From Erysipelotrichaceae bacterium (GTDB lineage: Bacteria; Bacillota_I; Bacilli_A; Erysipelotrichales; Erysipelotrichaceae), in contig JALEZD010000023.1 in assembly GCA_022772735.1 (NCBI GenBank), positions 99,791 to 123,790 on the forward strand: a stretch of DNA of 24,000 nt, in the 5' to 3' direction. Position 1 is the stretch's first letter, and each line of letters begins with the position of its first letter. The notes under the pieces were generated by a model. It saw only the letters and a program-made list of their open reading frames with translations, was not told where the DNA came from and did not search any database. The translations under genes and the position numbers were made by a program. Shown piece after piece: positions 4,287 to 18,728 of the stretch.

Positions 4287-6161
4287 ATGAAAAAGTATTT
4301 GTTTTTTATAAGTGTTTTTATTTTGATTGGATGTGTTAATAAAACAAAGCCAACTATAAATGAATTTAGTCAAGATGAGATAAAAAAATTAGTAGAACAA
4401 GCTGCAACCGCAAGTAATTTAGATATTTTGGATAAAGTAATTACTTTAGAAAAAAATGATAAATATATTATTTTAATGGATAAAGAAGGATTTATTTTTA
4501 TTGATTTAACAAGTTTAGAAGCAAAGTCGTATAGATTAAAAAAGAATTTAGAAATTGAAAGTTCTTCTATAAACGAAGATGAGAAAAACACTACAATTGA
4601 AGAAGATAAAAAGATTGTGAATATAAGAAAACACGGCAATCATTGGCATGTAACTATGGATGATGGTAGTGAGTTTATTACTTTTAAAGATCCAAGTGGT
4701 AATAAAACTTCTAAAAATATAGATGATAAAATAGAAGTAGTTAAAAATGTTAATAATGAAAAAAAAGAAATCTCTAGGTACTTACATGGTGATCATTGGC
4801 ATGTTAAATATGAAGATGGAAGTGAGGCAATAATATATGTTAATGGTAATAGTACAAATGATTTAAATAATATTAAAAATGTAAATGGTGTATTTGAAAA
4901 AGTAATTGATCATGGTGAACATATACATGTTTGGCATAATGGAAAAGAATATTCAATCAATAAAATAATGTATGATGAATTTATTTCTAGTGGGAAATTT
5001 GATGAAAACAAAGCCCTCGGAAAAGATAATAAAAGTCTTGTAGAAAATACTGATGAAAAAATAAAAAAAGAAATAGAGTATATTTCTGAAGTTTATAATG
5101 TACCCATTGAAGCAATAAAATATTCTGAAGAGTATTATGTTTTTAATGATCCAAGTCATTCATATGATCCAAGTCACATACATCCATATTATATTTATAG
5201 AAAAAGATTTGTAATCCCAGAGGTAACTGGAATTGATGAAATTGATTTTGAAAATGAGCTTGTTGCACTTGCAAATTTAAATAATATACCTATGAACCAA
5301 ATTAGAATATTTAATGATAAATTTGTACTTAGTCATGGAAGTCATGATCATTATGTAAAAATTAAAACTAAAAATTATAAGGAATATTTTGATAACAAAT
5401 TACCTACAATTCAAGGAAAATATATTGAAGGTGATTTTGATGAAACCTTAATTTTTAATAAAATTGATGAATTATTAAATAATTCTGAATCTAAATTTAC
5501 GGATATTGTTGTTAAAAGGCGAATAAGTAGAGCATTATTAGATTTAAAGCAAAGTATTAAGGCAGGAAAAAGTAATTCAACACAAGGTTATTTAGAAATG
5601 TTAGAAACATTTAATAAAAAATACATTCTTTTAGAGGATGTTAATGTTGTGGTAGATGAGGTTACTCAAAAATATTATGATTTAATAAATAAAGTGAATT
5701 CCAAACCTAATAATTTTTTTAGTATGGGTATTACAAAAGAAACAATAATTGAAGAAATTAATAAACATCAAAATGATTTGTTGAATTTAAAACTTTATGA
5801 GCATATTATTAATGAACTTGAAAAGTTTGAAGCAAGAAAAAATATTATAACTATTGGATATGCAAAATATTTAATTGAAAATGTTCAGAGTAGCTATATA
5901 TCAAATGATTTAAGAGAAGAAATATCAGAGTTAATTGTATATTTGAATAGTGGTATGTTTAACATTGATAACGACCGTGTTTTCCAACTAATAAATTTAA
6001 AAATTAAAGTTTTCGATTCTTTAAATAAGAAAGAAGAATTTGAAATTTTAGAAGGTGAACATTATTCTAATTTAATCATAAATCATTTTACAAGTGCTAG
6101 TGAATTTGTTGATGCAGTTAGTGATATGTCAGAAGAATTAACATTTCCTGATTCATTATAA
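4287..6161 (+). CDS. Lipoprotein with repeated histidine-triad (HxxHxH, Pht-like) modules and a long helical C-terminal region
   Basis: The signal peptide has a lipobox (FILIGC, Cys16). HxxHxH motifs are HGNHWH (4632-4649), HGDHWH (4785-4802), HGEHIH (4911-4928) and HGSHDH (5334-5351). A degenerate SHIH lies at 5172-5183. The motifs are embedded in repeated modules of the form HGxHxHV..(D/N)G(S/K)E. An AAGAGGGG RBS is present. Confidence 0.7.
   Translation: MKKYLFFISVFILIGCVNKTKPTINEFSQDEIKKLVEQAATASNLDILDKVITLEKNDKYIILMDKEGFIFIDLTSLEAKSYRLKKNLEIESSSINEDEKNTTIEEDKKIVNIRKHGNHWHVTMDDGSEFITFKDPSGNKTSKNIDDKIEVVKNVNNEKKEISRYLHGDHWHVKYEDGSEAIIYVNGNSTNDLNNIKNVNGVFEKVIDHGEHIHVWHNGKEYSINKIMYDEFISSGKFDENKALGKDNKSLVENTDEKIKKEIEYISEVYNVPIEAIKYSEEYYVFNDPSHSYDPSHIHPYYIYRKRFVIPEVTGIDEIDFENELVALANLNNIPMNQIRIFNDKFVLSHGSHDHYVKIKTKNYKEYFDNKLPTIQGKYIEGDFDETLIFNKIDELLNNSESKFTDIVVKRRISRALLDLKQSIKAGKSNSTQGYLEMLETFNKKYILLEDVNVVVDEVTQKYYDLINKVNSKPNNFFSMGITKETIIEEINKHQNDLLNLKLYEHIINELEKFEARKNIITIGYAKYLIENVQSSYISNDLREEISELIVYLNSGMFNIDNDRVFQLINLKIKVFDSLNKKEEFEILEGEHYSNLIINHFTSASEFVDAVSDMSEELTFPDSL
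4632..5351 (+). repeat. Intragenic array of 4-5 histidine-triad modules
   Basis: There are four canonical HxxHxH motifs and one degenerate motif, at irregular spacing (about 51, 42, 88 and 53 residues apart). The first three share flanking residues: HG-HWHV--(D/E)DGSE and HGEHIHVWHNGKE. Confidence 0.6.
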
Positions 6162-6169
6162 AACAGAAT

Positions 6170-6195
6170 AAAACCCCAAATTAACTTGGGGTTTT
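6170..6195. terminator. Bidirectional intrinsic terminator between convergent genes
   Basis: AAAACCCCAA-ATTAAC... pairs with TTGGGGTTTT. The core stem is CCCCAA (6174-6179) with TTGGGG (6186-6191). A-runs and T-runs flank both sides. The element overlaps the stop codon of the minus-strand regulator gene (6194-6196). Confidence 0.75.
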
Positions 6196-8080
6196 AGTTT
6201 TCAAAAATTTCAATAAAATCTTCAAAAGATTTTGATTTTAAAATGGTAGATAATTTAGAAATATCACTAGATAAGTCACTCATCCAATTGAAGAATAATT
6301 TCATTACATCACTTTCCATATTTTTTATAGTTAGTAAAAAAATTATTTGAACTTCATAATTATCCCAAGTGATTGGTTTATTCAATATCATAATACTTAT
6401 ACTAGAACTATTAATTGAATCAGTATTCAAGCTATGAGGTATTGCAAAACCTTGAATAAAAGAAGTACTAGACATAGTTTCACGAGCTAACACACTATTT
6501 AAATAATCATTAGTTACTTCATTTTTTTGATAAAGTTTATCACATAAGAAGCTTATTGCTTCATTAGGATTTTTAAACTCTTTATTTAAATAAAAGTTTT
6601 CTTTTTTTATGATATTTGCTAAATATTTTCTGTAATCTTTTTGTAATTTTTTTTGTTCGCATTCGTTTATTGCTTGGAAAATTTTTACTTCATCTTGATA
6701 GTTAAAGAATACAGATATTAAAACTGTTACAATATTTAAATTATGAATAATTGGTATACTACTGATTATAATGTCACACGAAAGTGTTTTAATTTTCTCT
6801 TCTTCAAAATAATTTAAAACAGCCACAATATCTAAGTGATGTTCAAATGTATTATTCAATTTGTTAATTAATTCGGTGTATATACCATGTGAATTTGGTA
6901 GTAATAAAACAGCACGATATTTTTGAGAATTTTGTCTTTCATATGCAGTTCCAAGATGTAAGGCAACAAAACCTATTTCAGATTCACATATTTTAATATT
7001 TAGTTTATTTTGCAAGTAATCACATGCAGCAATAGACAACTCAAATACAAGAGGAAATCTTTTTTTAATTTCATCTAAATAAAGATTTGATGGTGCTGCA
7101 TTTATTTTTAATCTCTCAAGTAAAGACTGAATGTGTAAACTCAAACCAACAGCTAATTCATTATCAATAGAAAAATCAATTCCAAATTGTTTGTAAATAT
7201 GATCAATTAATTCTTTGACAAGTTCTTCATAAACTAGATTACCTGTTAAAGAATAAGTGTCTTGATTTTTTTTGGTCATTAGTAATAATGAAAATAAAAT
7301 TATCTCAGAATCATATTTTTCAATTTGATATAATTTTGCAAGTTCTGTAAAAAATTCGGTTGCGATTTTAAATTCTATTGTTTCATTTATATCGACATTT
7401 AAAGCTATATTATCAATATGATGAAAGTTCATAAGCCTTTCTATAGTAACTCCAACATGTACAATCAAAACTGGAAAAGATACAGTACTTATTTTGTAGT
7501 TATATTTATCTAATATTGCTTCTAAACATCTTTTTGCCTTTAACAAATCAAATTTATTGTATAAAGATGCAATTTCATTAAGATTGTATAAATTGTTTTG
7601 AGTTTCCTCCATTAACATATCCTTATAAAGTTTTCTTTTGCTTTGTTCAGGACCTTTTAAATATAAGTTTTGTTTTGACTTAGAAATTGTTAAATTATCA
7701 TAGTTTTTTAAAATTTCTTTTATCTTTTTTAAGTCATTATCTAGTGAATATTCACTTATATATATATCTTCTATTAATTGATTAATATATGTATTTTGTT
7801 TGTTTATTAACAGTTGTTTAAGAATATAGTTATACCTTTCTTTTGGAGTCTGAGGTATTTGATTTTGAGGTATTGTATCAAAATAATTAAATGATGAATT
7901 TAGTCTATATCCTTGTTTTGTATTAGATTCTATAACAACTGAATTAAATTCAGAATTTATTTTTTCAATATCATACCTTATTGTTCTATCTGTAACACCT
8001 AAAATACTAGATAACTCCTTACCAGTTATCCAGTTTTTATTATTTAGTAAAGTTAGAATTTGTTTGTGTCGTTTTTGCAT
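6194..8080 (-). CDS. PRD-domain transcriptional activator of the LicR/MtlR/ManR type (HTH, PRD1, PRD2, EIIB-like, EIIA-Mtl-like)
   Basis: 628 aa. The N-terminal DeoR-type HTH reads ITGKELSSILGVTDRTIRYDIEKIN. PRD histidines occur in LIVHVGVTIERL, LSLHIQSLLERL and VALHLGTAYER. The C-terminal EIIA(Mtl/Fru)-type motif is GFAIPHS. The EIIB-like segment AVLLLPNSHG lacks the usual Cys. Confidence 0.85.
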   Translation of the reverse strand: MQKRHKQILTLLNNKNWITGKELSSILGVTDRTIRYDIEKINSEFNSVVIESNTKQGYRLNSSFNYFDTIPQNQIPQTPKERYNYILKQLLINKQNTYINQLIEDIYISEYSLDNDLKKIKEILKNYDNLTISKSKQNLYLKGPEQSKRKLYKDMLMEETQNNLYNLNEIASLYNKFDLLKAKRCLEAILDKYNYKISTVSFPVLIVHVGVTIERLMNFHHIDNIALNVDINETIEFKIATEFFTELAKLYQIEKYDSEIILFSLLLMTKKNQDTYSLTGNLVYEELVKELIDHIYKQFGIDFSIDNELAVGLSLHIQSLLERLKINAAPSNLYLDEIKKRFPLVFELSIAACDYLQNKLNIKICESEIGFVALHLGTAYERQNSQKYRAVLLLPNSHGIYTELINKLNNTFEHHLDIVAVLNYFEEEKIKTLSCDIIISSIPIIHNLNIVTVLISVFFNYQDEVKIFQAINECEQKKLQKDYRKYLANIIKKENFYLNKEFKNPNEAISFLCDKLYQKNEVTNDYLNSVLARETMSSTSFIQGFAIPHSLNTDSINSSSISIMILNKPITWDNYEVQIIFLLTIKNMESDVMKLFFNWMSDLSSDISKLSTILKSKSFEDFIEIFEN

Positions 8081-8171
8081 AGTACTCCTATATTTCCTTT
8101 CTTTAGGAAAAAGTTTAATTTTTTAAAATTTACTATAGATTTTACAATATTTATGAGGGGTGAATATTTAG

Positions 8172-9044
8172 ATGAGTTTTAGTATGCTTAGAAACAAAAT
8201 AAATAACAGTTGGCTAATTTCTATAATCCTTGTTTGTTTATCTAGTTTAGTTCAAACATATGTCCTTCAAACTTTTGTAAAATCTGCTAATCTACTTTCA
8301 TCAGGATTTAGTGGTTTATCAATACTTATACATAGAATATTAGCATTATATCATATAAATTTTCCTATTTCTTTGGGTTTATTGTTATTTAATGTTCCTT
8401 TTGCAATTTTATGTATAAAAAATGTTTCATTTAAATTTGCAGTTATTTCAACAATACAGTTTATGATGACTTCATTTTTACTTTTGGTATGTAATTTTAA
8501 ACCTATATTTGATGATGTGATTTTAAATTGTTTTATTGGTGGATTTGTATATGGACTATCAATTTTAATAGCTTTAGGGGCAAATGGTTCTACTGGTGGA
8601 ACAGACTTTATTGCGATGTATGTGTCAAATAAAATTGGTAAATCTATATGGTCATATGTTTTTTGTTTTAATGCATTTATACTTATTGTTTTTGGATTTA
8701 TTGCTGGATTTGAAAATGCTGGTTATTCTATAATTTTCCAATTTATAAGCACTCAAACAATTGAAAGATTTTATCATAGATTTGATCAAGTAACTTTACA
8801 AATCACTACATATAAACCAAATGAAGTTGCACAAAAATATATAGAAAAGTATAGACATGGAATGACAATAACAAAAAGCTATGGTGCTTACAGTAAAAAA
8901 GAGCTGTTTTTATGTCATAGTGTTGTTTCAAGCTATGAAGTAAGTGATATGATAAAGCTTATTAAAGATGTAGATAATAAAGCTATAATAAATGTTTTTA
9001 AAACCATGAATTTTTATGGTGGTTTTTATAGAGAAAAGATATAG
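8172..9044 (+). CDS. YitT-family membrane protein (with a DUF2179-like C-terminal domain)
   Basis: 290 aa with about 5-6 TM segments and a GGTDFIAM motif. The C-terminal soluble domain reads TITKSYGAYSKKE...VVSSYEVSDMIKLIKDVDNKAIINVF, which is typical of YitT/DUF2179. A GAGGGG RBS is present. Confidence 0.75.
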   Translation: MSFSMLRNKINNSWLISIILVCLSSLVQTYVLQTFVKSANLLSSGFSGLSILIHRILALYHINFPISLGLLLFNVPFAILCIKNVSFKFAVISTIQFMMTSFLLLVCNFKPIFDDVILNCFIGGFVYGLSILIALGANGSTGGTDFIAMYVSNKIGKSIWSYVFCFNAFILIVFGFIAGFENAGYSIIFQFISTQTIERFYHRFDQVTLQITTYKPNEVAQKYIEKYRHGMTITKSYGAYSKKELFLCHSVVSSYEVSDMIKLIKDVDNKAIINVFKTMNFYGGFYREKI

Positions 9045-9065
9045 TTAAATTAAGGAGGAAAAACT

Positions 9066-10025
9066 ATGTGGGCTATAATTGGTACTTGGAGAATGTCTTT
9101 GGAGGCTATAAGTAATGTTTCAAAGAAGTTAAAAAACAATGAAATTGATGCAGGTGGTGCAGTTGTTGAAAGCATTAGTGAAATTGAAGATTTTCCGTAT
9201 TTTAAATCTGTGGGATATGGTGGGTTACCAAATGAAGAAATGGTTGTTGAGCTTGATGCTGGATACATGGATGGTAGAGATTTTTCAATTGGGGCAATAA
9301 TGGCAATTAAAGATTATAAAAATCCAATAAAAATTGCATATGAATTATCTAAAGAATATACAAACTGTGTTTTAGTTGGTGAAGGTGCAGAAAAATATGC
9401 ACATAAAAATGGGTTTGTTAGACAAAATATGTTGAGTGATAGAGCAATAATTCACTATAAAAAAAGAGTAAAAGAAAATCTTGAACAAGAATTAAAACCA
9501 TATATAGGGCATGATACAGTTGGTATTTGTGTTTTGGATAATGATGAAAATATTTGTGTAGGAACTTCTACATCAGGTCTTTTTATGAAAAAAGCTGGAA
9601 GAGTTGGAGATAGTCCAATAATAGGTTCTGGGTTTTATGCTGATTCAAATATCGGTGCATGTAGCGCTACAGGACTTGGAGAAGATTTGATGAAGGGATG
9701 TATATCTTATGAAGTTGTTTCACTAATGGATAAAGGTTTATCACCACAAGAAGCTTGTGAAAAGGCGGTTTATGATTTAAAAAATAAATTGCTTAAAAAA
9801 AGAAAAAAAGTAGGAGATTTATCTATTGTTGCGATTGATAAAAACGGTAATTTTGGTTGTGCTACAAATATTGATAATTTTTCATTTGTTTACGCAAGTG
9901 AAAAACAAGAACCTATTGTTTATTTAGTGAAAAAAGAAGAAAATGGAAAAATGATTTTTGAAAAAGCAAGTCAAGAATGGTTAGACGATTATTTAAAGAC
10001 AAGGATGGCGAAATTAGAACTATGA
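9066..10025 (+). CDS. Glycosylasparaginase-type Ntn hydrolase (N4-(beta-N-acetylglucosaminyl)-L-asparaginase; Asparaginase_2 family), cytoplasmic
   Basis: 319 aa with no signal peptide. It has an N-terminal IGTW motif, SVGYGGLPNEE..VELDAGYMDG, the autoprocessing/nucleophile motif GHDTVG (Thr151, 9516-9518) and GRVGDSPIIGSGFYAD. These resemble aspartylglucosaminidase more than IaaA-type isoaspartyl peptidase, but I could not test this by alignment. A strong AGGAGG RBS is present. Confidence 0.7.
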   Translation: MWAIIGTWRMSLEAISNVSKKLKNNEIDAGGAVVESISEIEDFPYFKSVGYGGLPNEEMVVELDAGYMDGRDFSIGAIMAIKDYKNPIKIAYELSKEYTNCVLVGEGAEKYAHKNGFVRQNMLSDRAIIHYKKRVKENLEQELKPYIGHDTVGICVLDNDENICVGTSTSGLFMKKAGRVGDSPIIGSGFYADSNIGACSATGLGEDLMKGCISYEVVSLMDKGLSPQEACEKAVYDLKNKLLKKRKKVGDLSIVAIDKNGNFGCATNIDNFSFVYASEKQEPIVYLVKKEENGKMIFEKASQEWLDDYLKTRMAKLEL

Positions 10026-10750
10026 ATTATTTAGAAATATGTTGTGGTAGTTATGAAGATGCATTAAATGCATACAAAGGAAACGCAGATAGAATAGAGT
10101 TGAATAGTGCTTTGCATTTAGGAGGTTTAACACCGAGTCTTGCAACATTTAAACTGGCAAAACAGGTTATAAATATTCCAATAATTTGCATGATTAGACC
10201 AAGAGGTGCAGGTTTTAAATATACAAAATATGAAATAGAAACAATGTTTGAAGATGCAAAGATTTTTCTTGAAAATGGTGTAGATGGTTTAGCTTTTGGT
10301 TTTTTAAATGATGATTATAGTATAGATATTGAAAATACAAAAAAAATGGTAGATTTAATTCATTTATATAATAAAGAGGCAGTATTCCATAGAGCATTCG
10401 ACATAAGCAATGATCTTAAAAAAAGTATAGAAACTTTAATTGAATTAAATGTTGATAGAGTTTTAACAAGTGGTGGATATTCTAATGTAACATTAGGTAA
10501 AGATAATTTAAAAAAATTAAGTGAATATCAAAATAAAATTGAGATTTTAATGGGATCAGGCATTAATGAAAATAATGTAAAAGAAATAATAGAATATACA
10601 AATATTAATCAAGTACATAGTAGTGCAAAAACATGGATATTTGATAATACAACTGGGAATGATAAGCTAAATTATAGGTTTGTAGAAGATAATGTATATG
10701 ATATAGTTGATTTAAATAAGGTTATTAAACTAAAGGAGAATATTAAATGA
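10022..10750 (+). CDS. cutC: CutC-family TIM-barrel protein
   Basis: It matches E. coli and human CutC along its full length: LEICCGS..A..GNADRIELNSAL..GGLTPS, MIRPRG, FHRAFD, RVLTSG and VHSSA. The ORF track begins at 9977. I prefer ATG 10022, which overlaps the upstream stop as ATGA (10022-10025). Confidence 0.88.
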   Translation: MNYLEICCGSYEDALNAYKGNADRIELNSALHLGGLTPSLATFKLAKQVINIPIICMIRPRGAGFKYTKYEIETMFEDAKIFLENGVDGLAFGFLNDDYSIDIENTKKMVDLIHLYNKEAVFHRAFDISNDLKKSIETLIELNVDRVLTSGGYSNVTLGKDNLKKLSEYQNKIEILMGSGINENNVKEIIEYTNINQVHSSAKTWIFDNTTGNDKLNYRFVEDNVYDIVDLNKVIKLKENIK

Positions 10751-11829
10751 GAAAATTTGGTGTAAGTATTTATCCAGCACATTCAAACTGGGAAAAAGAT
10801 TATGAGTATTTAAAAAAGGCTTCTAAACTAGGATATTCAAGATTGTTTATGTGTTTACTATCTGAAAAGGATACTTTAGAAAATATTGTAAAAAAATATA
10901 AAAATATTTGTGATAAGGCGCATGAATTAGGTTTTGAAATTTCAGTTGATACTAATTTCAATGTTTTTAAAAGATTAAATGCTAGTGCGTTTGATTTAAG
11001 TGTTTTTAAAGAGATTGGAATTGATATTATAAGATTAGATGGACCATTTACAAATAATGACTATGTTGCGATGACAAACAATCCATTTGGAATAAAAATA
11101 GAATTTAATGGATGTACTTATTTAAATTTAGAGTATCTAATTGAAATTGGTGCAAATAAAAATAATATGGTTGTATGTGCAAATTTCTATCCACAAAGAC
11201 ATACAGCAGTAGATGTTGATTTATATTTAGATTTTTGTAACAGATTTAGAAGTTTAGGAATAAGAAATGCAGCATTTGTATCAAGTAATAATGAAAATAC
11301 TTTTGGTCCATGGGAAGTATATGAAGGATTAGTTACTATTGAAGAATGTAGAGATATGGATATTTGTGATCAAGCAAGACTTTTAGTAGCTTTAGGTGTG
11401 GTTGATGATATATTTATTGGAAATTGCTATGCAAGTGATGATGAACTTGAAAGATTAAGCAAAGTTGATTTAAATACAATTTGTTTGAAAATTGAAGAAA
11501 ATAATATACTAGATGAAGAAAGTAAAATTTTATATAACTCTATACACTTTAGAAGACTTGATTGTGGCAAAACAATGATTAGATCATCATTTACAAGAGA
11601 TAATAGATCATTTTATGTTCCATTTAAAAAATATGAAAATTCTAAGGTTTATTCTGGAAGTGTTACTATAATAAATGATAATTTAAAGCATTATGGAAAT
11701 GAGGTACAAATATTATTAAAAGATATTAATAATGATGATACTAGAAATGTTGTTGGATATTTAAATGAATTTGAAATGAAACTTGTTTCGTTTATTAAAA
11801 TTAATCAAATTTTTAAATTTATAAAATAA
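10747..11829 (+). CDS. DUF871 / MupG-family protein (putative 6-phospho-glycosidase)
   Basis: 360 aa. The N-terminal GVSIYP start, overall size and PTS context are typical of DUF871, whose characterised member is the S. aureus MurNAc-6P-GlcNAc hydrolase MupG. There is an ATGA overlap with the cutC stop (10747-10750) and an AAGGAG RBS. Confidence 0.65.
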   Translation: MRKFGVSIYPAHSNWEKDYEYLKKASKLGYSRLFMCLLSEKDTLENIVKKYKNICDKAHELGFEISVDTNFNVFKRLNASAFDLSVFKEIGIDIIRLDGPFTNNDYVAMTNNPFGIKIEFNGCTYLNLEYLIEIGANKNNMVVCANFYPQRHTAVDVDLYLDFCNRFRSLGIRNAAFVSSNNENTFGPWEVYEGLVTIEECRDMDICDQARLLVALGVVDDIFIGNCYASDDELERLSKVDLNTICLKIEENNILDEESKILYNSIHFRRLDCGKTMIRSSFTRDNRSFYVPFKKYENSKVYSGSVTIINDNLKHYGNEVQILLKDINNDDTRNVVGYLNEFEMKLVSFIKINQIFKFIK

Positions 11830-11842
11830 GGGAGAAACTTAA

Positions 11843-12415
11843 ATGAATGAAAAATCAAGGGGCGGATATTTAGTTAAAAGAGTTTTTGCGTTTGGAATTG
11901 ATTGGTATTTTACAGCAGTTATTGCGAATATTATATCTGTTTTATTTAACGTTTTAATTTTTAAAGAAAGTTTACCGATAAAACCAACTGATCAATCTAA
12001 GATTTTATGGTTTATTCTTGCGTGTTTTATTGCAAGCTTATTCACATACATTTATATACCTTTAAAAAGAAAAAATAATCAAACTATTATGCAAAAAGTA
12101 TTACAACTTGAAGTTGTTTCAATTAATGGTGAAAAATTAAGTATTAAAAATCATTTAATTAGATTTTTTGTTGGATGTCTTATTCTGGAAAGTGCTTTAT
12201 ATATTTTTTCTGCACAATTCACAAGCTATTTTCTTTATTTGATATTCCCATTACAAATTCAAGCATATATTTCATATTTACTTATTATAATTTCAATAGT
12301 TAGTCTAATTTTTGCATTTGTTGATAAAAAAAATACTCAAACATTCCACGATAAAATATCAAATAGCAAAGTGATTGATGTGGGTTTCCTAGATAAAGGA
12401 AAAAAACTTCTATAA
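11843..12415 (+). CDS. RDD-family integral membrane protein
   Basis: 190 aa. It has N-terminal KRVFAFGIDWYF, three TM segments and C-terminal FHDKISNSKVIDV, which fits the RDD-domain pattern. A GGGAG RBS is present. Confidence 0.55.
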   Translation: MNEKSRGGYLVKRVFAFGIDWYFTAVIANIISVLFNVLIFKESLPIKPTDQSKILWFILACFIASLFTYIYIPLKRKNNQTIMQKVLQLEVVSINGEKLSIKNHLIRFFVGCLILESALYIFSAQFTSYFLYLIFPLQIQAYISYLLIIISIVSLIFAFVDKKNTQTFHDKISNSKVIDVGFLDKGKKLL

Positions 12416-12462
12416 AAATATGTGTTAATTATGTGAGAATAGTATCAGAAAGGTGTGATGCT

Positions 12463-12783
12463 ATGAAAAGATTTTATTTATTTTGTAGTGCTGGGATGTC
12501 TACAAGTCTTCTTGCAAGTAGAATGCAAAAAGTAGCTGATGCTCATAATTTGCAAATAGAAATTAAAGCATTCTCAGACAAAGAAATGCCAATGATTGTT
12601 GAACAATACAATCCAGATGTAATCTTATTAGGACCACAAGTTAAACATATATTTGGCAGAGTAAATGAAAAATATGGCGACAAAATACCTGTATTTGTCA
12701 TAGACAGTAAAGATTATGGGGAAGTAAATGGTGAAAGGGTATTAAAAGTTGCTATAAAAGCTTATAAGGAAAGAAAGGGATAG
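12463..12783 (+). CDS. PTS EIIB component, lactose/cellobiose (ChbB/LicB) family
   Basis: MKRFYLFCSAGMSTSLL carries the phospho-Cys motif. The length is about 106 aa. The ORF track starts at GTG 12433. I prefer ATG 12463, preceded by GAAAGGTG. Confidence 0.85.
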   Translation: MKRFYLFCSAGMSTSLLASRMQKVADAHNLQIEIKAFSDKEMPMIVEQYNPDVILLGPQVKHIFGRVNEKYGDKIPVFVIDSKDYGEVNGERVLKVAIKAYKERKG

Positions 12784-12786
12784 AAT

Positions 12787-14133
12787 ATGTTTGAAAAGTT
12801 AGAAAAGTTATTAACTCCTGTTGCGAACTCTTTATCTAAAAATAAAATATTGATTGCAATAAGAGATGGTTTCATGATTACAGTTCCTATTACTATTGTT
12901 GCATCAATATTCCTATTGTTAGCAAATTTCCCTATTGAAGGGTGGTCTACATTTATTGCAGGATTCTTTGGTGAAGGTTGGGAACAACATTTAGCAAGAG
13001 TTACAAGAGTTGGGTTTAATACAATTGCATTATTAGGTGCACTTGGTATTGGATATGCTTACTCACGTGAAGAAGGTATTGATAATAAAATTGCTGGTGG
13101 TGTAGTTGCAATGGTTTGCTTCTTAATCATATCTCCACAAGCTCATCCAACATTTGTTAATGAAGGTGGTTCATCTTTTAGAGGTTTCTCGTTAACACAC
13201 TTAGGAACTGCAGGTATGTTCTTATCAATGCTTACAGCAATAATTTCAGTTAAAATTTTTGGTTGGGCATTAAAGAAAAACTTAGTAATTAAATTACCTG
13301 ATGGAGTTCCTCCAATGGTAATGGATTCATTTGCTTCATTAATTCCTGCAGCATTCGCAATATTGTTCTTCTTTGTTGTGAATATTATTTTCTCAAATAC
13401 AAGTTATGAATATGCTCATAATTTTATTTATCAAGTATTACAAGCGCCTTTAACAGGTTTAGGACAATTAAGTATATTTGAGGTTATTTATCAATTCTTA
13501 TCTACTTTATTCTGGTTCTTCGGAATTAATGGTCCAGCTGTAACAAATACAATTTTTGGACCAATTCATAAAGCATTAACTCTTGAAAATTTAAATAATT
13601 TTGAAGCTGGAAAACCAATGCTTAATATTTTCACAGCTGGTTTCTCTGATTTCTTCTGTAATTTTGGTGGTGGAGGTTCAACACTAGGGTTAGTAATAAT
13701 GATGTCTACAATTGGTAAATCAAGTAGAATTAAAACTTTAGGTAGATTATCTCTTCCAGCTGGTATATTTGGAATTAATGAACCAATTATATTTGGTTTA
13801 CCAGTCGTATTAAATCCTATTATGGCTGTACCATTCATTTTAACACCAGTTGTTAATACAATTCTTGCAACTGTGGCAACTTATATTGGATTCATTCCAA
13901 TCACAAGTGGTATTCAACTTCCTTGGACAATGCCTATTGTTTTCTCAGGATTTTTAGTAACAGGAACAATTAGAGGCGCAATCTTACAAATCTTCTTATT
14001 AGCTGTTAATATGGCAATTTATTATCCATTCTTAAGAATTTTAGATAATAAATATTTAGAAGATGAAAAGAACGCTGTTTCTGAAAAAGATGAAATTGAT
14101 GATTTATCATTTGATGATTTGTCATTAGATTAA
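12787..14133 (+). CDS. PTS EIIC permease, lactose/cellobiose family
   Basis: 448 aa. The N-terminus reads LTPVANSLSKNKILIAIRDGFMITVPITIVASIFLL. It has about 10 TM segments and the typical FGINGP, GGGGST and INEPIIFG motifs. It ends in an unusual acidic tail of about 26 aa. Confidence 0.9.
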   Translation: MFEKLEKLLTPVANSLSKNKILIAIRDGFMITVPITIVASIFLLLANFPIEGWSTFIAGFFGEGWEQHLARVTRVGFNTIALLGALGIGYAYSREEGIDNKIAGGVVAMVCFLIISPQAHPTFVNEGGSSFRGFSLTHLGTAGMFLSMLTAIISVKIFGWALKKNLVIKLPDGVPPMVMDSFASLIPAAFAILFFFVVNIIFSNTSYEYAHNFIYQVLQAPLTGLGQLSIFEVIYQFLSTLFWFFGINGPAVTNTIFGPIHKALTLENLNNFEAGKPMLNIFTAGFSDFFCNFGGGGSTLGLVIMMSTIGKSSRIKTLGRLSLPAGIFGINEPIIFGLPVVLNPIMAVPFILTPVVNTILATVATYIGFIPITSGIQLPWTMPIVFSGFLVTGTIRGAILQIFLLAVNMAIYYPFLRILDNKYLEDEKNAVSEKDEIDDLSFDDLSLD

Positions 14134-14134
14134 T

Positions 14135-14656
14135 ATGAAGATTGTTGTAATTTTTGATCAAGGATTGTCAGGATTAGGCGGAAAGAGTAATCTAGACTTA
14201 CCACTTACAATTCAAAAAGGTAGTGTAGGAACTGGACTTATTTTGAGTCAACATTTAAATAAAGTAAATGCTGAAATAATCGCTACATTATCTTGTGGAG
14301 TAAATACATTTAACAATGATAAAGAAAACACAGTATTAAAGTTATGTGCTATGGTTAAAAAGATAAACCCTGACTTTGTACTTGTTGGTCCATGTTTTGA
14401 TTTTAAAGATTATGCATTAATGAGTGCAATGACTTGTAAATTATTAAAAGAAAAATCAATAGCCAAAGCTGTTAGTATGATGTCTATTGAAAATAAAGCA
14501 GTCATTGATGAATATGCCAAAGAAATTGACATAATTAAAATGCCTAAAAAAGGTGGAACAGGATTAAATGATAGTTTAGCTGATCTTTGTGAATATATTG
14601 AAACATTAAATAATCAAGATAAACTTGATGAGCTAAAGAAAAGAATATGTTATTAA
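14135..14656 (+). CDS. Small protein resembling the N-terminal domain of glycine/sarcosine/betaine reductase component B (GrdB-like, no Sec domain)
   Basis: 173 aa. By my recollection, several segments parallel the GrdB N-terminus. MKIVVIFDQGLSGLGGKSN..KGSVGTG parallels VHYINQFF.GIGGEEKA...G.VGPG. LVGPCFDFKDYALMSAMTCK parallels AGPAFNAGRYG.ACG. MMSIENKAV parallels ENPGV. The ORF ends with TAA and has no in-frame TGA. The family assignment is from memory only. Confidence 0.4.
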   Translation: MKIVVIFDQGLSGLGGKSNLDLPLTIQKGSVGTGLILSQHLNKVNAEIIATLSCGVNTFNNDKENTVLKLCAMVKKINPDFVLVGPCFDFKDYALMSAMTCKLLKEKSIAKAVSMMSIENKAVIDEYAKEIDIIKMPKKGGTGLNDSLADLCEYIETLNNQDKLDELKKRICY

Positions 14657-14679
14657 AGGTTGCTTTAGCAACCTTTTTG
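14656..14679 (+). terminator. Intra-operon terminator-like hairpin (possible attenuator or partial terminator)
   Basis: AAGGTTGC-TTTA-GCAACCTT forms an 8-bp stem (4 G:C pairs) and runs into TTTTT. It starts at the last base of the upstream stop codon. It ends 12 nt before the next ATG, and that gap holds only the RBS GAAAGGAAA. Confidence 0.5.
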
Positions 14680-14690
14680 AAAGGAAAAAT

Positions 14691-15713
14691 ATGAATATTG
14701 ATAGATTAAAAAAATTAGTTGATATTTTTTCTGTATCAAGCTATGAAGATGAATTAAAAAATTTTTTTAAAAAAGAATGTGAAGAAAAAGATTTTATTGA
14801 AGATAAATTAGGTAGCATTTTTTATCTTAAAAAATCAAAAAATCCCCAAGCTAAAAGGGTTATGATTGCATGTAGTAAAGATGAAGTTGGTTTAATGATT
14901 AAAGAGGTTTTTGAAGATGGAACTTGTAGTTTTATAACTCTTGAACCACTTAGCCCTGCAAGTCTTTTACATCAAAGAATAAATATTTTAACAAGAGATA
15001 ATAAAATTATTGAGGGATTTATTTTTTGCAAAAATGTAAAGTTTAATGAAGTTCCTTTAGAAACAATAAAAATTGATGATTTAAGTATTGATACAGGTGA
15101 AACTGATGCAAAAAACTTAATTAAACCTGGAGATATATGTGGATTTAAAAATCAATTTTGTAAAGTAGGCAATAGAGTTATTTCTAAAGGTTTAAATCAA
15201 AAAACTTTTATAGAAGTTATTTTGTGTACTATTGAAAAGTTAAAAGATATTGAATTAGATTTTGAAATTGCATTAGGTATTGTTGCACAATCTACAATTG
15301 GATTTAGAGGAAGTAAAACTGCAAATTATGTTGTTAATCCAGATTTAGCAATCGTCATAAATGGGTTTGAGGTTAATAATTCTAATCCTAAAATAAATTT
15401 AAATGATGGTTTTATTGTTTCTCAATTTGATAAACAAATGTTGCCAAACAGATTGCTTTTAAACGATATAAAATCTAAATATAATTACAAAGAATATTTT
15501 GGAATAATTGGTAATGATGGTTCATTTATTCATAAAACAATGAATGGAGTTAGTTGTGTTAGTGTTGGTATTCCAATAAAAAATATTCATACAAGTGTAG
15601 AAATGATAGATTTGTTGGATGTTAAAAAGTTAGAGGACAACTTGTTTGATTATATAATGACTTTAAATAATGAAAAAATAATCAAACTTGGGGTGAGTGA
15701 ACATGAGTTTTAA
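14691..15713 (+). CDS. M42-family peptidase paralog with degenerate metal and catalytic residues (likely pseudo-peptidase)
   Basis: 340 aa, collinear with the downstream M42 gene. At the conserved positions it has CSKDEVG versus THVDEIG (His to Ser), GLNQK versus AFDNR (Asp to Asn) and AQSTIGFRG versus TQEEVGLRG (Glu-Glu to Ser-Thr). It also has AIVINGF versus AFAIDTT (Asp to Asn). Only the C-terminal His is kept (IKNIHTS versus IRYMHSN). Confidence 0.75.
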   Translation: MNIDRLKKLVDIFSVSSYEDELKNFFKKECEEKDFIEDKLGSIFYLKKSKNPQAKRVMIACSKDEVGLMIKEVFEDGTCSFITLEPLSPASLLHQRINILTRDNKIIEGFIFCKNVKFNEVPLETIKIDDLSIDTGETDAKNLIKPGDICGFKNQFCKVGNRVISKGLNQKTFIEVILCTIEKLKDIELDFEIALGIVAQSTIGFRGSKTANYVVNPDLAIVINGFEVNNSNPKINLNDGFIVSQFDKQMLPNRLLLNDIKSKYNYKEYFGIIGNDGSFIHKTMNGVSCVSVGIPIKNIHTSVEMIDLLDVKKLEDNLFDYIMTLNNEKIIKLGVSEHEF

Positions 15714-16752
15714 ATTATTAAAAGAATTAAGTGAAATTCCTTCTATTTCTTCAAATGAATATTTAATATGTGATTATATAAAAGATAAGTTAAACACTAT
15801 AGGATATAAATATAGAGTTGATGGATTAAATAGTGTTATTGCTTATAAAGAAAATACTTTAAATCCTTTAAAATTTATGATTGCTACTCATGTTGATGAA
15901 ATTGGGTTTATTGTAAAAAGTATTGATAATAGTGGGTTTATAAAAATGGAAGCTGTTGGCTCATGGTGGTCACATTTGGTCATGGGGCAATTAATGGAGA
16001 TAACAACATCTGAAAATAAAAGATTTTTAGCCCTTGTTGGAAGTCTTCCAACACATGGTATAAAAAAAGAAATAAAAGAAAGAACTATTGATTTAAATGA
16101 TTTATATTTAGATTTAGGTGTTTCAAGCAAAGAGAGTGTATTAAAACTTGGTATAAATATTGGCGATATGATAACTCCATATGCAAAAACACAAATGATG
16201 AATGAATATGGTTATGTTATCTCAAAAGCATTTGACAATAGAATAAGTACATACATTCTTATGAGATTTTTAGAAGAGGTAAATAATAAAAATAATATTT
16301 TTGGAGCTTTTACAACTCAGGAAGAAGTTGGATTGCGTGGAGCTAGAACATCAACAAATATGATAAAACCTGATATCGCTTTTGCGATTGATACAACTCT
16401 TGCAGGAGATACACCACTTACTAAAAATATATGTAAATTAAATGGTGGAGTTGTTTTATCAATGATTGATTCAAATTCAATTGCACCTAGAAAATTAATA
16501 AGGTATTTAGAAAATTTATGCAATAAAAATAATATTAAATATCAATATGCAGTTTTTAATGGTGGAGGAACTGATTCAGGTAATATACACAAATCATTAG
16601 ATGGTATATTAAATTTAACACTGTCTATTCCTATAAGATATATGCATTCTAATTATTCAATGGTAAATTTAAATGATGTTGAAGAGTGTATAAAATTATT
16701 ACTTGCGATTAATGAAGATATTACTTTAGATAAGATAGAGGAACTTATATGA
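15703..16752 (+). CDS. M42-family metallo-aminopeptidase (FrvX/YsdC/TET-like), ligands intact
   Basis: All canonical M42 motifs are present: HVDEIG, AFDNR, QEEVGLRGA, AIDTT and RYMHS. The ORF track starts at GTG 15697. I prefer ATG 15703, after the GGGGTGAG RBS. Either start overlaps the upstream gene end (15713). Confidence 0.85.
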   Translation: MSFKLLKELSEIPSISSNEYLICDYIKDKLNTIGYKYRVDGLNSVIAYKENTLNPLKFMIATHVDEIGFIVKSIDNSGFIKMEAVGSWWSHLVMGQLMEITTSENKRFLALVGSLPTHGIKKEIKERTIDLNDLYLDLGVSSKESVLKLGINIGDMITPYAKTQMMNEYGYVISKAFDNRISTYILMRFLEEVNNKNNIFGAFTTQEEVGLRGARTSTNMIKPDIAFAIDTTLAGDTPLTKNICKLNGGVVLSMIDSNSIAPRKLIRYLENLCNKNNIKYQYAVFNGGGTDSGNIHKSLDGILNLTLSIPIRYMHSNYSMVNLNDVEECIKLLLAINEDITLDKIEELI

Positions 16753-17873
16753 GAAATGAATTATTTAAAGCTATTGATGAATTAAAAGATAGTCTAATTA
16801 ATGATGTGTGTGATTTAGTAAAAATAGAAAGTATTCAAGGTGAAAGTACAGTTGATTTTCCATATGGTAAAAATGTGAATGATGCTTTAAGTCACGCCCT
16901 TAAAATTTGCGAAAGGGAAGGTTTACTAACAAAGAATATTGATAATCAAATGGGTTATGGGCAATATGGAGAATCTAAAGAATATATCGGTATTTTTGGG
17001 CATTTAGATGTTGTTGAAGTGGGTGATGGTTGGAAATATCCACCTTTTAGTGCAACTATTAGTGAAAATAAAATATGGGGTAGAGGTGCTTTAGATAATA
17101 AAGGACCAATAATTGCAGCGTTATATGGATTATTAGCATTAAAAAAATTAAATATATGTCCTAAAAGAGCCATTAGAATTGTTTTTGGAACAAATGAAGA
17201 AACAGGAATGAATGATATAAAATATTATTTGGAAAAAGAAAATCCACCGATAATGGGATTTACACCAGATAATAAATTTCCTGCAATTTATGGTGAGCGT
17301 GGAAGAGCAGTAATTGAAGTAGAAAATGAAATTTCTTTAATGGTTGATTTTATTAATGAATATTTTATGAATGCAAAACCTAATGGTGATAGATTAGGTA
17401 TAAATGTTTTTGATAATGATTTTAAAGAAATGATTATTAGAAATAAAAAAATAGATTATAAAAATAATAAAATGTCCATCAAGTTTAGTTTGAGTACACC
17501 AGTTTGTGATATTAATGAAATTATTGAAAAAATATCATTAAAATCTAATGGTGGAAATGTTAAGTTAATTTCATGGTCACCTTGGGTTTTACATAATAAG
17601 GATGCAACATTAATAAAAATTTTAAATGATGCATATAATGAAATTTTTGATACAAATCTAGAGCCAACAACTACTACAGGTGGAACTTATGCTCATATTT
17701 GTACAAATATAATTCCATATGGACCATCTTTTCCAGGTCAAAATGGAATTGCTCATCAACCAAATGAGTTTATAGATATTGATGATTTAATTTTATGTGC
17801 GAAAGTTTATGCATATGCACTTTATAAACTATCATTAATAGATGAAATTGAAAAACCACTTATTTTGAAATAG
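16749..17873 (+). CDS. M20-family dipeptidase (PepV/Sapep-like, short lid region)
   Basis: 374 aa. Motifs are GHLDVVEVGDGWKYPPF, GRGALDNKGP, GTNEETG, GFTPDNKFPAIYGERG and C-terminal GGTYAH. It is about 90 aa shorter than typical PepV. There is an ATGA overlap with the upstream stop (16749-16752). Confidence 0.85.
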   Translation: MRNELFKAIDELKDSLINDVCDLVKIESIQGESTVDFPYGKNVNDALSHALKICEREGLLTKNIDNQMGYGQYGESKEYIGIFGHLDVVEVGDGWKYPPFSATISENKIWGRGALDNKGPIIAALYGLLALKKLNICPKRAIRIVFGTNEETGMNDIKYYLEKENPPIMGFTPDNKFPAIYGERGRAVIEVENEISLMVDFINEYFMNAKPNGDRLGINVFDNDFKEMIIRNKKIDYKNNKMSIKFSLSTPVCDINEIIEKISLKSNGGNVKLISWSPWVLHNKDATLIKILNDAYNEIFDTNLEPTTTTGGTYAHICTNIIPYGPSFPGQNGIAHQPNEFIDIDDLILCAKVYAYALYKLSLIDEIEKPLILK

Positions 17874-17895
17874 TGCTTTAAAGGCACTATTTTTA
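17871..17895 (+). terminator. Rho-independent terminator closing the PTS/peptidase block
   Basis: TAGTGC(TT)-TAA-(AG)GCACTA hairpin (17871-17889) followed by TTTTT (17890-17894). It begins at the stop codon TAG. Confidence 0.55.
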
Positions 17896-17930: not shown

Positions 17931-18728
17931 ATGTATAATATTACTATTAACAAAAATACTGTTTATATTGATGATATTGTTTCATTTGAATTTATTAGTA
18001 AAGATAAAATTATAACATTTAGTTTTATTATACATAAGGATGTAGATTTTTATTGTTTTAGTGAAATATTAAACTTATTTACAAATTTTATGATAAAAAA
18101 GTTTAAAGTAATTAAATTGAAAATTAAAAAAGAAAATGTAAATAAATATTACAAGTCATTTTATGAATGCATGTATTATGAATATAAAGAATATTTAATA
18201 AGAAGTGTTGAAGCATACAGGTATTTAATTGATGAAAATGCTTTTGATAATAAAGGTTTTATTATTAATCAATCAAAACTTAAAATTATACCTTTTAAAA
18301 TGTTTAAAACTGATAAAAAAGGTTGTGGATGGATTGCGGTTTATAATTTTTTAAAAATAATTCACAGAGAAAAAACAATTAAAGAAGTTTCACAAAATGT
18401 TTCAAAATATGCATTGTTTTTTGGTGCAATTGGACAAGATATTTTTACGATATTTTATTATTTAAGAAAAAATAATATAAATGTATTTTTAACTCCAATA
18501 TTTAAAAGACAGTGTATTAGAGATATAAAAATGAGTAAAGCTGGTATTATATTGTATATTCATTCAAGAGGTTCTCATTATGTTGCATATAAAAATTTAG
18601 GTAATGGTAAATGTTTGTTATATAATGTTGTATATGGAAAAGAAAATCACATTATGAATATTGAAGAGTTTTATAAAAAATATTCTATAACGCCATTGGG
18701 AATGTTATTGTTTGTGAATGAGGTATAG
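17931..18728 (+). CDS. Hypothetical protein with a putative papain-fold (C39-like) cysteine peptidase domain in its C-terminal half
   Basis: 265 aa with no signal peptide. Candidate triad: Cys132 in KKGCGWIAVYNFL (18324-18326), His216 in RGSHYVAYK (18576-18578) and Asn231 in LLYNV. The Cys-to-His spacing is about 84 aa and the His-to-Asn spacing is 15 aa. By recollection these resemble C39-type domains. The RBS is weak and the N-terminal 100 aa are unrecognised. Confidence 0.35.
   Translation: MYNITINKNTVYIDDIVSFEFISKDKIITFSFIIHKDVDFYCFSEILNLFTNFMIKKFKVIKLKIKKENVNKYYKSFYECMYYEYKEYLIRSVEAYRYLIDENAFDNKGFIINQSKLKIIPFKMFKTDKKGCGWIAVYNFLKIIHREKTIKEVSQNVSKYALFFGAIGQDIFTIFYYLRKNNINVFLTPIFKRQCIRDIKMSKAGIILYIHSRGSHYVAYKNLGNGKCLLYNVVYGKENHIMNIEEFYKKYSITPLGMLLFVNEV

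Follow-up and report, generated by a model that had tools for sequence, protein, structure and literature searches.

A 24,000-nucleotide (nt) stretch of an Erysipelotrichaceae bacterium genome (contig JALEZD010000023.1, positions 99,791 to 123,790; hereafter the window) carries a cluster of twelve genes, which probably encodes a system for the catabolism of asparagine-linked N-acetylglucosamine (GlcNAc) remnants of N-glycoproteins. Uptake would proceed via a phosphotransferase system (PTS) and expression would be controlled by a PRD-type activator; the substrate would be GlcNAc-Asn, and probably also short GlcNAc-Asn peptides and/or chitobiosyl-Asn. This assignment is based on protein families, gene linkage and analogy to characterized systems. 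An initial annotation, made from the nucleotide sequence alone, had already proposed a system for Asn-linked glyco-amino acids or glycopeptides, and three lines of evidence now support it: the identity of the asparaginase encoded in the cluster, the conservation of the gene set in related bacteria and the precedent of the ega locus of Enterococcus faecalis. All sequence comparisons with ega were made on locus L087 of Enterococcus xiangfangensis, which stands in for the E. faecalis locus. The gene cluster is real and exceeds chance: three independent metagenome assemblies contain the identical locus with identical gene calls, and the combination of genes recurs in dozens of species.

Gene content and organization

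The window is very AT-rich (20-32% G+C), its host being an Erysipelotrichaceae-like bacterium of the gut. The map of open reading frames (ORFs) places twelve genes where the initial annotation had positioned them, one on the minus strand followed by eleven on the plus strand (8172-17873), and Pfam profile searches of the window proteins confirmed every family named at the time, including the divergently transcribed regulator, of LicR/MtlR/Mga type:

6194-8080, minus strand: PRD regulator, 628 residues (Pfam HTH_11, Mga, two PRD domains, PTS_EIIA_2)
8172-9044, plus strand: YitT-family membrane protein with C-terminal DUF2179 (Pfam YitT_membrane and DUF2179)
9066-10025, plus strand: glycosylasparaginase-type N-terminal nucleophile (Ntn) hydrolase, predicted cytoplasmic (Pfam Asparaginase_2, 206 bits)
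10022-10750, plus strand: CutC-family triosephosphate isomerase (TIM)-barrel protein (Pfam CutC, 182 bits)
10747-11829, plus strand: putative 6-phospho-beta-glycosidase of glycoside hydrolase family 170 (GH170; DUF871, MupG-like; MupG_N 243.5 bits, MupG_C 85.6 bits)
11843-12415, plus strand: RDD-family membrane protein (Pfam RDD)
12433/12463-12783, plus strand: Lac/Cel-family PTS enzyme IIB (EIIB; Pfam PTS_IIB)
12787-14133, plus strand: Lac/Cel-family PTS enzyme IIC (EIIC; Pfam PTS_EIIC, 172 bits)
14135-14656, plus strand: GrdB-N-terminal-like protein, selenium-free form (Pfam GRDB, profile positions 2-164 of 347; NF041545)
14691-15713, plus strand: catalytically dead M42 paralog, a pseudo-peptidase (Pfam Peptidase_M42, 135 bits)
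15697/15703-16752, plus strand: intact M42 (TET-type) aminopeptidase (Pfam Peptidase_M42, 298 bits)
16749-17873, plus strand: PepV/Sapep-related M20 peptidase with a short lid (Pfam Peptidase_M20, 101 bits)

The eleven plus-strand genes are tightly packed, the successive junctions measuring 21, -4, -4, 13, 47, 3, 1, 34, -11 and -4 nt. The ATGA start/stop overlaps at 10022-10025, 10747-10750 and 16749-16752 are present as annotated, and the range of 1-47 nt originally given for the gaps holds for the true, non-overlapping ones; with the ATG at 15703 as its start codon, the second M42 gene overlaps the first by 11 nt. Folding revealed two hairpins followed by U-runs:

14655-14678, plus strand: hairpin and U-run, possible partial terminator or attenuator (weak evidence)
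17867-17894, plus strand: intrinsic-terminator-like hairpin and U-run, overlapping the stop codon of the M20 gene

The second of these bears out the terminator that had been placed at the end of the block: the hairpin at 17867-17893 has a folding energy of -12.7 kcal/mol (z = -5.9), with none of 200 shuffles being as good, and it was missed by a consensus terminator scan of the window. The first, located directly 3' of the stop codon of the GrdB-like gene and ahead of the M42 genes, is followed by UUUUU and is less stable (-11.2 kcal/mol, z = -2.7, matched by 4 of 200 shuffles); the peptidase genes may be expressed at a lower level as a result. A sigma-70 promoter scan of the window returned sites no more numerous than in shuffled sequence, and no promoter positions were assigned; scans of the window for Rfam families and tRNAs were negative.

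The glycosylasparaginase-type hydrolase

By sequence, the Ntn hydrolase is glycosylasparaginase-like. Its Asparaginase_2 score of 206.2 bits compares with a gathering score of 27, and in a search of all solved structures the best match is to the glycosylasparaginase chains of Elizabethkingia/Flavobacterium (166 bits, E = 8e-48), whereas isoaspartyl peptidases and plant-type asparaginases reach ~110-116 bits. The sugar-stacking tryptophan is kept (Trp8, corresponding to Trp11 of the Flavobacterium enzyme), the predicted autoprocessing site and nucleophile is Thr151 in GHDT|VG (equivalent to Thr152), and the aspartyl-holding motifs TSTSG, GRVGDSP and ATGLGE align with Thr170, Arg180, Asp183 and Thr203/Gly204. 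These active-site motifs are invariant across 19 homologues, and homologues with 62-69% identity carry the NCBI name N(4)-(beta-N-acetylglucosaminyl)-L-asparaginase. The asparaginase of the ega-type Enterococcus locus L087 is 49% identical. The first residues align from residue 7 of the solved signal-peptide-free chain, so the protein has no signal peptide, as annotated. The grouping with aspartylglucosaminidases, not with isoaspartyl dipeptidases, is likewise upheld, by the bit scores (166 versus ~112) and by the retained active-site residues.

These data also bear on an explanation in which the Ntn hydrolase is an isoaspartyl aminopeptidase that, together with the M42 and M20 enzymes, degrades beta-aspartyl or other peptides, the PTS genes being regulatory only. 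Asparaginase_2 includes isoaspartyl peptidases, and three peptidase-fold genes are present in the cluster. We nevertheless consider this extremely unlikely: the bit scores and the residue pattern favour a glycosylasparaginase, the NCBIfam beta-aspartyl-peptidase model is matched with 119 bits against a cut-off of 567, intact EIIB and EIIC are conserved beside the asparaginase, and the GH170 protein would be left without a role.

Two further features of the asparaginase family were observed. In the window asparaginase the tryptophan is followed by Arg-Met (TWRM, residues 7-10; 9066-9095), a pair that is invariant in 19 homologues from Firmicutes and also present in the Enterococcus enzyme, whereas the periplasmic Flavobacterium enzyme has Asn-Phe at this place; the arginine might contact the 6-phosphate of a PTS-derived substrate. 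In addition, a metagenome contig of 6,096 bp in ENA encodes a predicted protein of 457 residues (P0095) in which GRDB (PF07355) precedes Asparaginase_2 (PF01112), being either a true fusion of adjacent genes or an artefact of gene calling or assembly.

Conservation of the cluster

For a survey of related loci, one genome per species was scanned with an asparaginase alignment, yielding 80 loci with asparaginases of 59-81% identity. They span the Erysipelotrichaceae (which hold the closest, at 81% and 78%), Lachnospiraceae, Clostridiaceae, Peptostreptococcaceae, Peptoniphilaceae, Butyricicoccaceae, Aerococcaceae and others. Partner genes were counted by tblastn with the window proteins within 10 kb of the asparaginase gene, both in all 80 loci and in the 42 loci with full flanks:

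CutC: 65 of 80 loci; 38 of 42 with full flanks
M20 peptidase: 61 of 80; 39 of 42, directly adjacent in 31
EIIC: 52 of 80; 32 of 42
EIIB: 51 of 80; 33 of 42
YitT: 50 of 80; 30 of 42
GrdB-like protein: 50 of 80; 30 of 42
PRD regulator: 48 of 80; 31 of 42
GH170: 26 of 80; 17 of 42
RDD: 21 of 80; 13 of 42
M42 pair: 8 of 80; 7 of 42

The gene combination is thus conserved well beyond the window, in several families of gut Firmicutes. Its commonest order is regulator, IIA/IIB, IIC, GrdB-like gene, asparaginase, M20, CutC and YitT, at times followed by GH170. Three of the 42 loci with full flanks have the complete gene set of the window. In one of them, from Dielma fastidiosa, the set forms two modules, divergent or separate: RDD-IIB-IIC-GrdB-M42-M42-M20 and regulator/YitT-asparaginase-CutC-GH170. 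Two carriers of the complete set, D. fastidiosa and Allobaculum stercoricanis (L056 and L025), are cultivable. Unlike layouts also occur side by side: ENA sample ERZ9426291 contains two related Erysipelotrichaceae (L001 and L090) with asparaginases of 81% identity, one locus having the order YitT-asparaginase-CutC-GH170-IIA-HAD-RDD without adjacent EIIB/EIIC and the other having the layout of the window. CutC, YitT, RDD and the GrdB-like protein can be regarded as conserved accessory components.

Regulator and candidate operator

Evidence for a common regulon comes from a cis-element. The window contains exactly two copies of the inverted repeat TTTCCT-N6-AGGAAA, compared with 0.12 expected by chance:

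8093-8110: inverted repeat, candidate operator 1, in the intergenic region between the regulator and YitT genes
12385-12402: second copy, candidate operator 2 and candidate internal promoter region, in the last RDD codons

The second copy, TTTCCTAGATAAAGGAAA, is located 60 nt before the EIIB start; a repeat matching the first is present in the equivalent regulator/YitT intergenic region of other species. The 80 loci together contain 47 copies of TTCCT-N6-AGGAA and 55 of TTCCT-N7-AGGAA, versus ~1.5 each in shuffles, and nearly all copies are positioned at most 400 nt upstream of regulator, YitT, IIA, IIB, asparaginase, GH170 or RDD genes. Copies with N5 and N8 spacings are near background; for TTCCT-N8-AGGAA, 9 copies were counted against a background of ~1.8, of which five lie just upstream of CutC genes. 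The repeat is present in 42 of the 48 loci with a PRD regulator versus 6 of the 32 without one, a comparison confounded by contig truncation, and it is absent from the Enterococcus locus L087, whose regulator is of the GntR type. TTCCT-N6/7-AGGAA is therefore probably the operator of the PRD regulator.

Nine GH170 genes in the surveyed loci are preceded by the repeat, which ties GH170 to one regulon with the cluster. The internal palindrome copy at 12385-12402, together with the U-run hairpin at 14655-14678, indicates that the gene string of the window possibly comprises more than one transcription unit.

The phosphotransferase components

EIIB carries its phosphorylatable cysteine in LFCSAGMSTS and matches TIGR00853 and PRK10499; the metagenome gene calls start it at the ATG at 12463. 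EIIC scores 380 bits with the Lac/Cel subfamily model TIGR00410 (cut-off 236) and stays below the equivalog cut-offs for cellobiose (380 versus 434) and chitobiose (176 versus 760). Of the 80 related loci, 52 have a gene for a Lac-type EIIA; none was detected in the window, even at E <= 10.

The EIIC sequences of the related loci fall into subgroups. The window EIIC is 68-73% identical to those termed here 'type 2', 42-47% to the commoner 'type 1' and 45% to the Enterococcus EIIC, which itself is nearer to 'type 1' (55-58%). By sequence, the window EIIC thus belongs to a subgroup apart from that of the enterococcal ega transporter. 'Type 2' EIICs travel with RDD in every sampled case, and mostly also with the M42 pair. 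The separate subgroup implies that the transported molecule may differ, for instance being a glycopeptide and not a bare glyco-amino acid.

Taken further, the 'type 2' EIIC might import another sugar-amino-acid conjugate altogether, such as a glycated (Amadori) compound or an O- or N-linked HexNAc-amino acid other than GlcNAc-Asn. Apart from the dissimilarity to the enterococcal EIIC, this would be in line with the PTS-linked M42/M24 modules with an aminotransferase that adjoin ega-type loci. It appears very unlikely, however, as the asparaginase is 59-67% identical to the enzymes of 'type 1' EIIC loci with an unchanged active site, and the window lacks any deglycase or kinase of the kind that characterizes Amadori pathways.

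GH170 and the GrdB-like protein

The GH170 protein is closest to the uncharacterized Bacillus cereus protein 1X7F (246 bits). The initial annotation had assigned to it the removal of a 6-phospho sugar, which fits the finding that Lacticaseibacillus paracasei requires a GH170 enzyme and a cellobiose-type PTS for N,N'-diacetylchitobiose (PMC12791066). The same precedent suggests a different function for the whole cluster, namely a PTS operon for chitobiose or chito-oligosaccharides, in which a Lac/Cel PTS acts together with a GH170 6-phospho-beta-N-acetylglucosaminidase and the asparaginase and peptidases are passengers that separately scavenge nitrogen; the window EIIC, a generic Lac/Cel member without assigned specificity, would be compatible with such a transporter. 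Yet GH170 is among the less constant partners (17 of 42), whereas 71-93% of loci have the PTS, the GrdB-like protein, M20 or CutC together with the asparaginase; one operator motif precedes asparaginase, PTS and GH170 genes alike; and E. faecalis takes up GlcNAc-Asn by a PTS without a GH170 gene in the locus as described (PMC11160706, PMC11976118). We regard a chitobiose operon as unlikely.

A second possibility suggested by GH170, which the initial annotation had named as its alternative, is muropeptide salvage: the PTS would import N-acetylmuramic acid (MurNAc)-GlcNAc, possibly with a peptide, a MupG-like enzyme would cut it, the peptidases would act on the stem peptide and the Ntn hydrolase on iso-Asx cross-bridges. 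The sole biochemically characterized GH170 enzyme is indeed a 6-phospho-N-acetylmuramidase, MupG of Staphylococcus aureus (PMC6262408), and a gene for a secreted GH73 glucosaminidase lies 0.9 kb downstream of the cluster (18731-21460). This alternative found little support. The window encodes neither the MurQ etherase nor a Glc-family MurP, and its PTS is of the Lac/Cel family, so that GH170 may be regarded as a family member for which MupG specificity is unsupported; the GH73 gene and the ORF preceding it occur in none of the 80 related loci; and the Ntn hydrolase is glycosylasparaginase-like, with the sugar-stacking tryptophan kept. The probability of muropeptide salvage is accordingly very low.

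The GrdB-like protein exceeds the cut-off of the NF041545 model 'GrdB_like_no_Se' (201.6 versus 175) and corresponds to the N-terminal half of GrdB only. Its AlphaFold2 model, with a predicted local distance difference test score (pLDDT) of 95.9, shows a flavodoxin-like alpha/beta fold with an invariant Cys-Gly and an MPKKGG motif; comparison of the model with the PDB gave no informative structural neighbour. 'Oxidoreductase', as in the model title 'GrdB-related putative oxidoreductase', is a putative label.

The peptidases

The two adjacent M42 genes encode a dead and a live enzyme. In the protein encoded at 14691-15713, annotated from the start as degenerate, the residues His, Asp, Glu, Glu and Asp read Ser, Asn, Ser, Thr and a gap, and the metal-binding His, Asp, Glu and Asp as well as the catalytic Glu are also lost in nine of nine orthologue sequences from other loci. 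The intact enzyme (15703-16752; 232 bits to B. subtilis 1VHE) keeps all seven residues checked, among them the two-metal site (His, Asp, Glu, Asp, His) and the catalytic Glu, as do 11 of 11 orthologues from other loci. The dead paralog is always paired with the intact one, and the conservation of this pair suggests a mixed TET-type oligomer.

The M20 peptidase scores above the cut-off of the Sapep/PepV subfamily model (TIGR01887, 318 bits versus 208) and below that of the PepV equivalog (321 versus 435). A two-piece alignment shows that the metal-binding motifs HLD, LDNKG, NEE, TPD and HQPNE are kept, while the lid of PepV/Sapep is shortened by ~60-90 residues, the protein having 374 residues versus 433-492; relative to the Enterococcus L087 enzyme, the deletion amounts to ~60 residues.

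A different peptidase module was observed beside ega-type loci of two distantly related genomes (L006, 1387-8691; L087, 1-3277). It comprises an M24 (Xaa-Pro-type) peptidase, an M42 peptidase and an aminotransferase, to which L006 adds a PRD regulator, PTS IIA and IIB, and it resembles the fry/ypdEF arrangement of E. coli.

CutC

CutC is, after M20, the second most constant neighbour of the asparaginase clade. The protein scores 140 bits against human CUTC and 160 bits against the E. coli equivalog model (cut-off 311); its predicted structure (pLDDT 93.9) has a template-modelling score of ~0.9 to human and Shigella CutC. The next structural neighbours are phosphate-binding TIM barrels acting on phosphorylated sugars, including the isomerase of phosphoribosyl-anthranilate, an N-glycosylamine, and Pfam and NCBIfam indicate weak similarity to the BtpA/SgcQ family. 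A role of CutC in copper homeostasis is not supported even in E. coli, where the copper phenotype of cutC is caused by the small RNA (sRNA) MicL encoded within the gene (PMC4102768).

The association of CutC with the asparaginase is one-sided. In a CutC-centred sample of 80 metagenomic loci with 49-60% CutC identity, 24 have an asparaginase nearby; among the 39 loci that extend 4 kb or more to either side, 12 do. Elsewhere the neighbours are of mixed kinds, with alpha/beta-hydrolases, PTS enzyme I, fumarase plus malic enzyme, and others; individual homologues outside asparaginase clusters (L092, 5473-9794; L119, 10737-11480; L161, 10740-11582; L112, 10824-12518) are encoded with malic enzyme and two fumarase subunits, before alpha/beta-hydrolases (three cases) or beside PTS enzyme I. 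With ~30% of the sampled homologues near an asparaginase, CutC was rejected as a strictly asparaginase-specific partner. A literature search combining CutC with glycosylasparaginase found no paper, and one combining it with N-glycan found only an indirect, STRING-type hint in Xanthomonas.

CutC might be, instead of a copper protein, an enzyme of N-glycan-core catabolism acting just after glycosylasparaginase, for example by hydrolysing or converting 1-amino-GlcNAc(-6-phosphate), with the dead/live M42 pair and the short-lid M20 enzyme forming a dedicated trimming machine for glycopeptides imported by the PTS. We consider this combined proposal unlikely. In its favour are the linkage in 38 of 42 loci within 10 kb, the phosphate-binding barrels, an N-glycosylamine isomerase among them, as structural neighbours and the sRNA origin of the copper phenotype; against it stand the low share of close homologues (~30%) near an asparaginase and the mixed character of the other neighbourhoods. 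If true, it would provide the first biochemical function for a family conserved from bacteria to humans and the first physiological substrate class for PTS-linked M42 peptidases.

Proposed pathway

The cluster could facilitate the use of Asn-linked GlcNAc in the following manner: (i) EIIC and EIIB, as in E. faecalis and in keeping with their family, would take up the glyco-amino acid or glycopeptide with phosphorylation of its GlcNAc at O6, the EIIA being encoded elsewhere. (ii) The intact M42 enzyme, probably assembled with its dead paralog, and the M20 peptidase would trim flanking residues, leaving an Asn with free alpha-amino and alpha-carboxyl groups. (iii) Where 6-phospho-GlcNAc-beta-1,4-GlcNAc is present, GH170 may split off GlcNAc-6-phosphate, by analogy to ChbE of L. 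paracasei. (iv) The glycosylasparaginase would then cut the amide, yielding L-Asp and 1-amino-GlcNAc(-6-phosphate), which would give rise to GlcNAc(-6-phosphate) and ammonium. 1-Amino-GlcNAc(-6-phosphate) is fairly stable at cytoplasmic pH. The products would enter the general Nag pathway. The PRD regulator would presumably activate two promoters by binding TTCCT-N6-AGGAA at its two sites, upstream of YitT and EIIB, and its PRD and EIIA domains would couple induction to the phosphorylation state of the PTS.

Several observations speak against this pathway or at least against its details. The window contains neither EIIA nor NagA or NagB, nor does it encode an endo-N-acetylglucosaminidase for N-glycans. 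Its EIIC shares only 45% identity with the enterococcal one, and the substrate may not be plain GlcNAc-Asn. Only ~40% of the loci have GH170, and the one member of this family with established biochemistry, MupG, acts on MurNAc-6P-GlcNAc (PMC6262408). Since CutC homologues of ~50-60% identity are found near an asparaginase in only ~30% of cases, the presence of CutC says little about the substrate. Finally, PepV is dispensable for growth on a glyco-amino acid in Lactobacillus casei (PMC6960285), and the trimming role of the peptidases is one that we infer. Still, catabolism of Asn-linked GlcNAc remains the explanation we favour: each of its rivals accounts for fewer of the conserved links, and the chitobiose, muropeptide and isoaspartyl explanations each fail to give a role to one of the asparaginase, the PTS and GH170.

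Flanking genes

Three ORFs adjoin the cluster on the plus strand:

4287-6161, plus strand: lipoprotein-like ORF, 624 residues, no family match
17931-18728, plus strand: ORF of 265 residues just past the terminator, no Pfam or NCBIfam match
18731-21460, plus strand: secreted GH73 protein, 909 residues (GH73 Glucosaminidase, Big_3, Listeria-Bacteroides repeat, weak SH3_3, C-terminal hydrophobic anchor)

All three were rejected as members of the system, being found in none of the 80 related loci. The 624-residue ORF has an N-terminal lipobox-like motif, FILIGC, and repeats of the type H-G-x-H-W-H / H-x-H-V; it may be a metal-binding surface protein. The C-terminal half of the 265-residue ORF displays a Cys/His pattern, GCGW...SHYVAY, resembling that of small papain-like or C39-like peptidases. 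The 909-residue protein is a probable cell-wall hydrolase.

Implications

In the gut, N-glycoproteins supplied by the host and the diet are a major source of nutrients, and GlcNAc-Asn is the stub left after the action of endoglycosidases and proteases. A PTS route for this stub was demonstrated not long ago in E. faecalis, where it contributes to infection. A larger version of the route would be widespread in Erysipelotrichaceae, Lachnospiraceae, Clostridiaceae and their relatives. CutC, YitT/DUF2179, the GrdB-like protein, RDD, GH170 and the pseudo-M42/M42 pair would be tied to one defined substrate class, and their functions thereby become experimentally approachable; the pathway also offers a testable answer to the old puzzle of why aminopeptidases occur in PTS operons. 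The candidate operator can be used for regulon prediction in genomes.

Comparison with known systems

The precedent for the core of the cluster is the ega locus of E. faecalis (Combret et al., Res Microbiol 175:104169), considered here as described in two papers that cite this study. The locus serves the use of GlcNAc-Asn; besides a GntR regulator and a dipeptidase, it encodes the glycosylasparaginase EgaG, the Lac/Cel components EIIB and EIIC and a GrdB-like oxidoreductase (PMC11160706). The general EIIA CelA1 is required for transport (PMC11976118). The stand-in locus L087 has the architecture GntR (GntR/UTRA), M20, Asparaginase_2, IIB, IIC, GRDB and IIA, and its products are 49% (asparaginase), 45% (EIIC), 34% (GrdB-like) and 31% (M20) identical to those of the window. 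As far as ega is described in these sources, the two systems have in common a cytoplasmic glycosylasparaginase, Lac/Cel EIIB/EIIC, a GrdB-like gene and an M20 peptidase in one locus, and in both the EIIA for PTS uptake can be encoded elsewhere, the window likewise having no EIIA gene. The window differs in that a PRD/LicR-type activator with its own palindrome takes the place of GntR, the EIIC belongs to another subgroup and the lid of M20 is shortened; beyond ega, it contains CutC, YitT/DUF2179, GH170, RDD and the dead/live M42 pair.

In the alf-2 cluster of L. casei for fucosyl-alpha-1,6-GlcNAc-Asn, the gene of the glycosylasparaginase AsnA2, a cytoplasmic enzyme that processes itself, is likewise linked to that of a PepV-type M20 peptidase, and the authors noted this linkage in many genomes (PMC6960285). 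The asparaginase-M20 linkage is shared with the window, the substrate of alf-2 being a glyco-amino acid of the N-glycan core. In contrast to the window, uptake is mediated by the major facilitator superfamily permease AlfH and not by a PTS, so that the sugar has to be phosphorylated by the kinase SugK; alf-2 alone has a fucosidase and an aspartate decarboxylase, and CutC, GH170, the GrdB-like protein and M42 are missing there.

In the chb operon of L. paracasei (PMC12791066), in mupG-murQ-murP of S. aureus (PMC6262408) and in the window, the GH170 gene accompanies a PTS, and its product presumably cuts a 6-phospho-disaccharide made during transport. The chb and mupG operons contain neither asparaginase nor peptidases, unlike the window, and the partners of MupG, the Glc-family MurP and the etherase MurQ, are both absent from it.

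PTS genes are encoded together with an M42 aminopeptidase of unknown substrate in three E. coli operons: frvABXR (FrvX), sgc (SgcX, with the BtpA-like barrel SgcQ) and fry-ypdEF (YpdE). Their PTSs are of the Fru/Gat type, and they have neither an asparaginase nor a dead M42 partner; we know of no substrate class that could be inferred from them.

Against this background, the initial statement that no PTS pathway of this composition had been characterized does not hold for the core, for which ega is the precedent, and stands for the additions, that is, CutC, GH170, M42, YitT and RDD. The core system is already known from E. faecalis, and the window represents an expanded variant of it, with another regulator, an EIIC of another subgroup and a further six or seven conserved genes.

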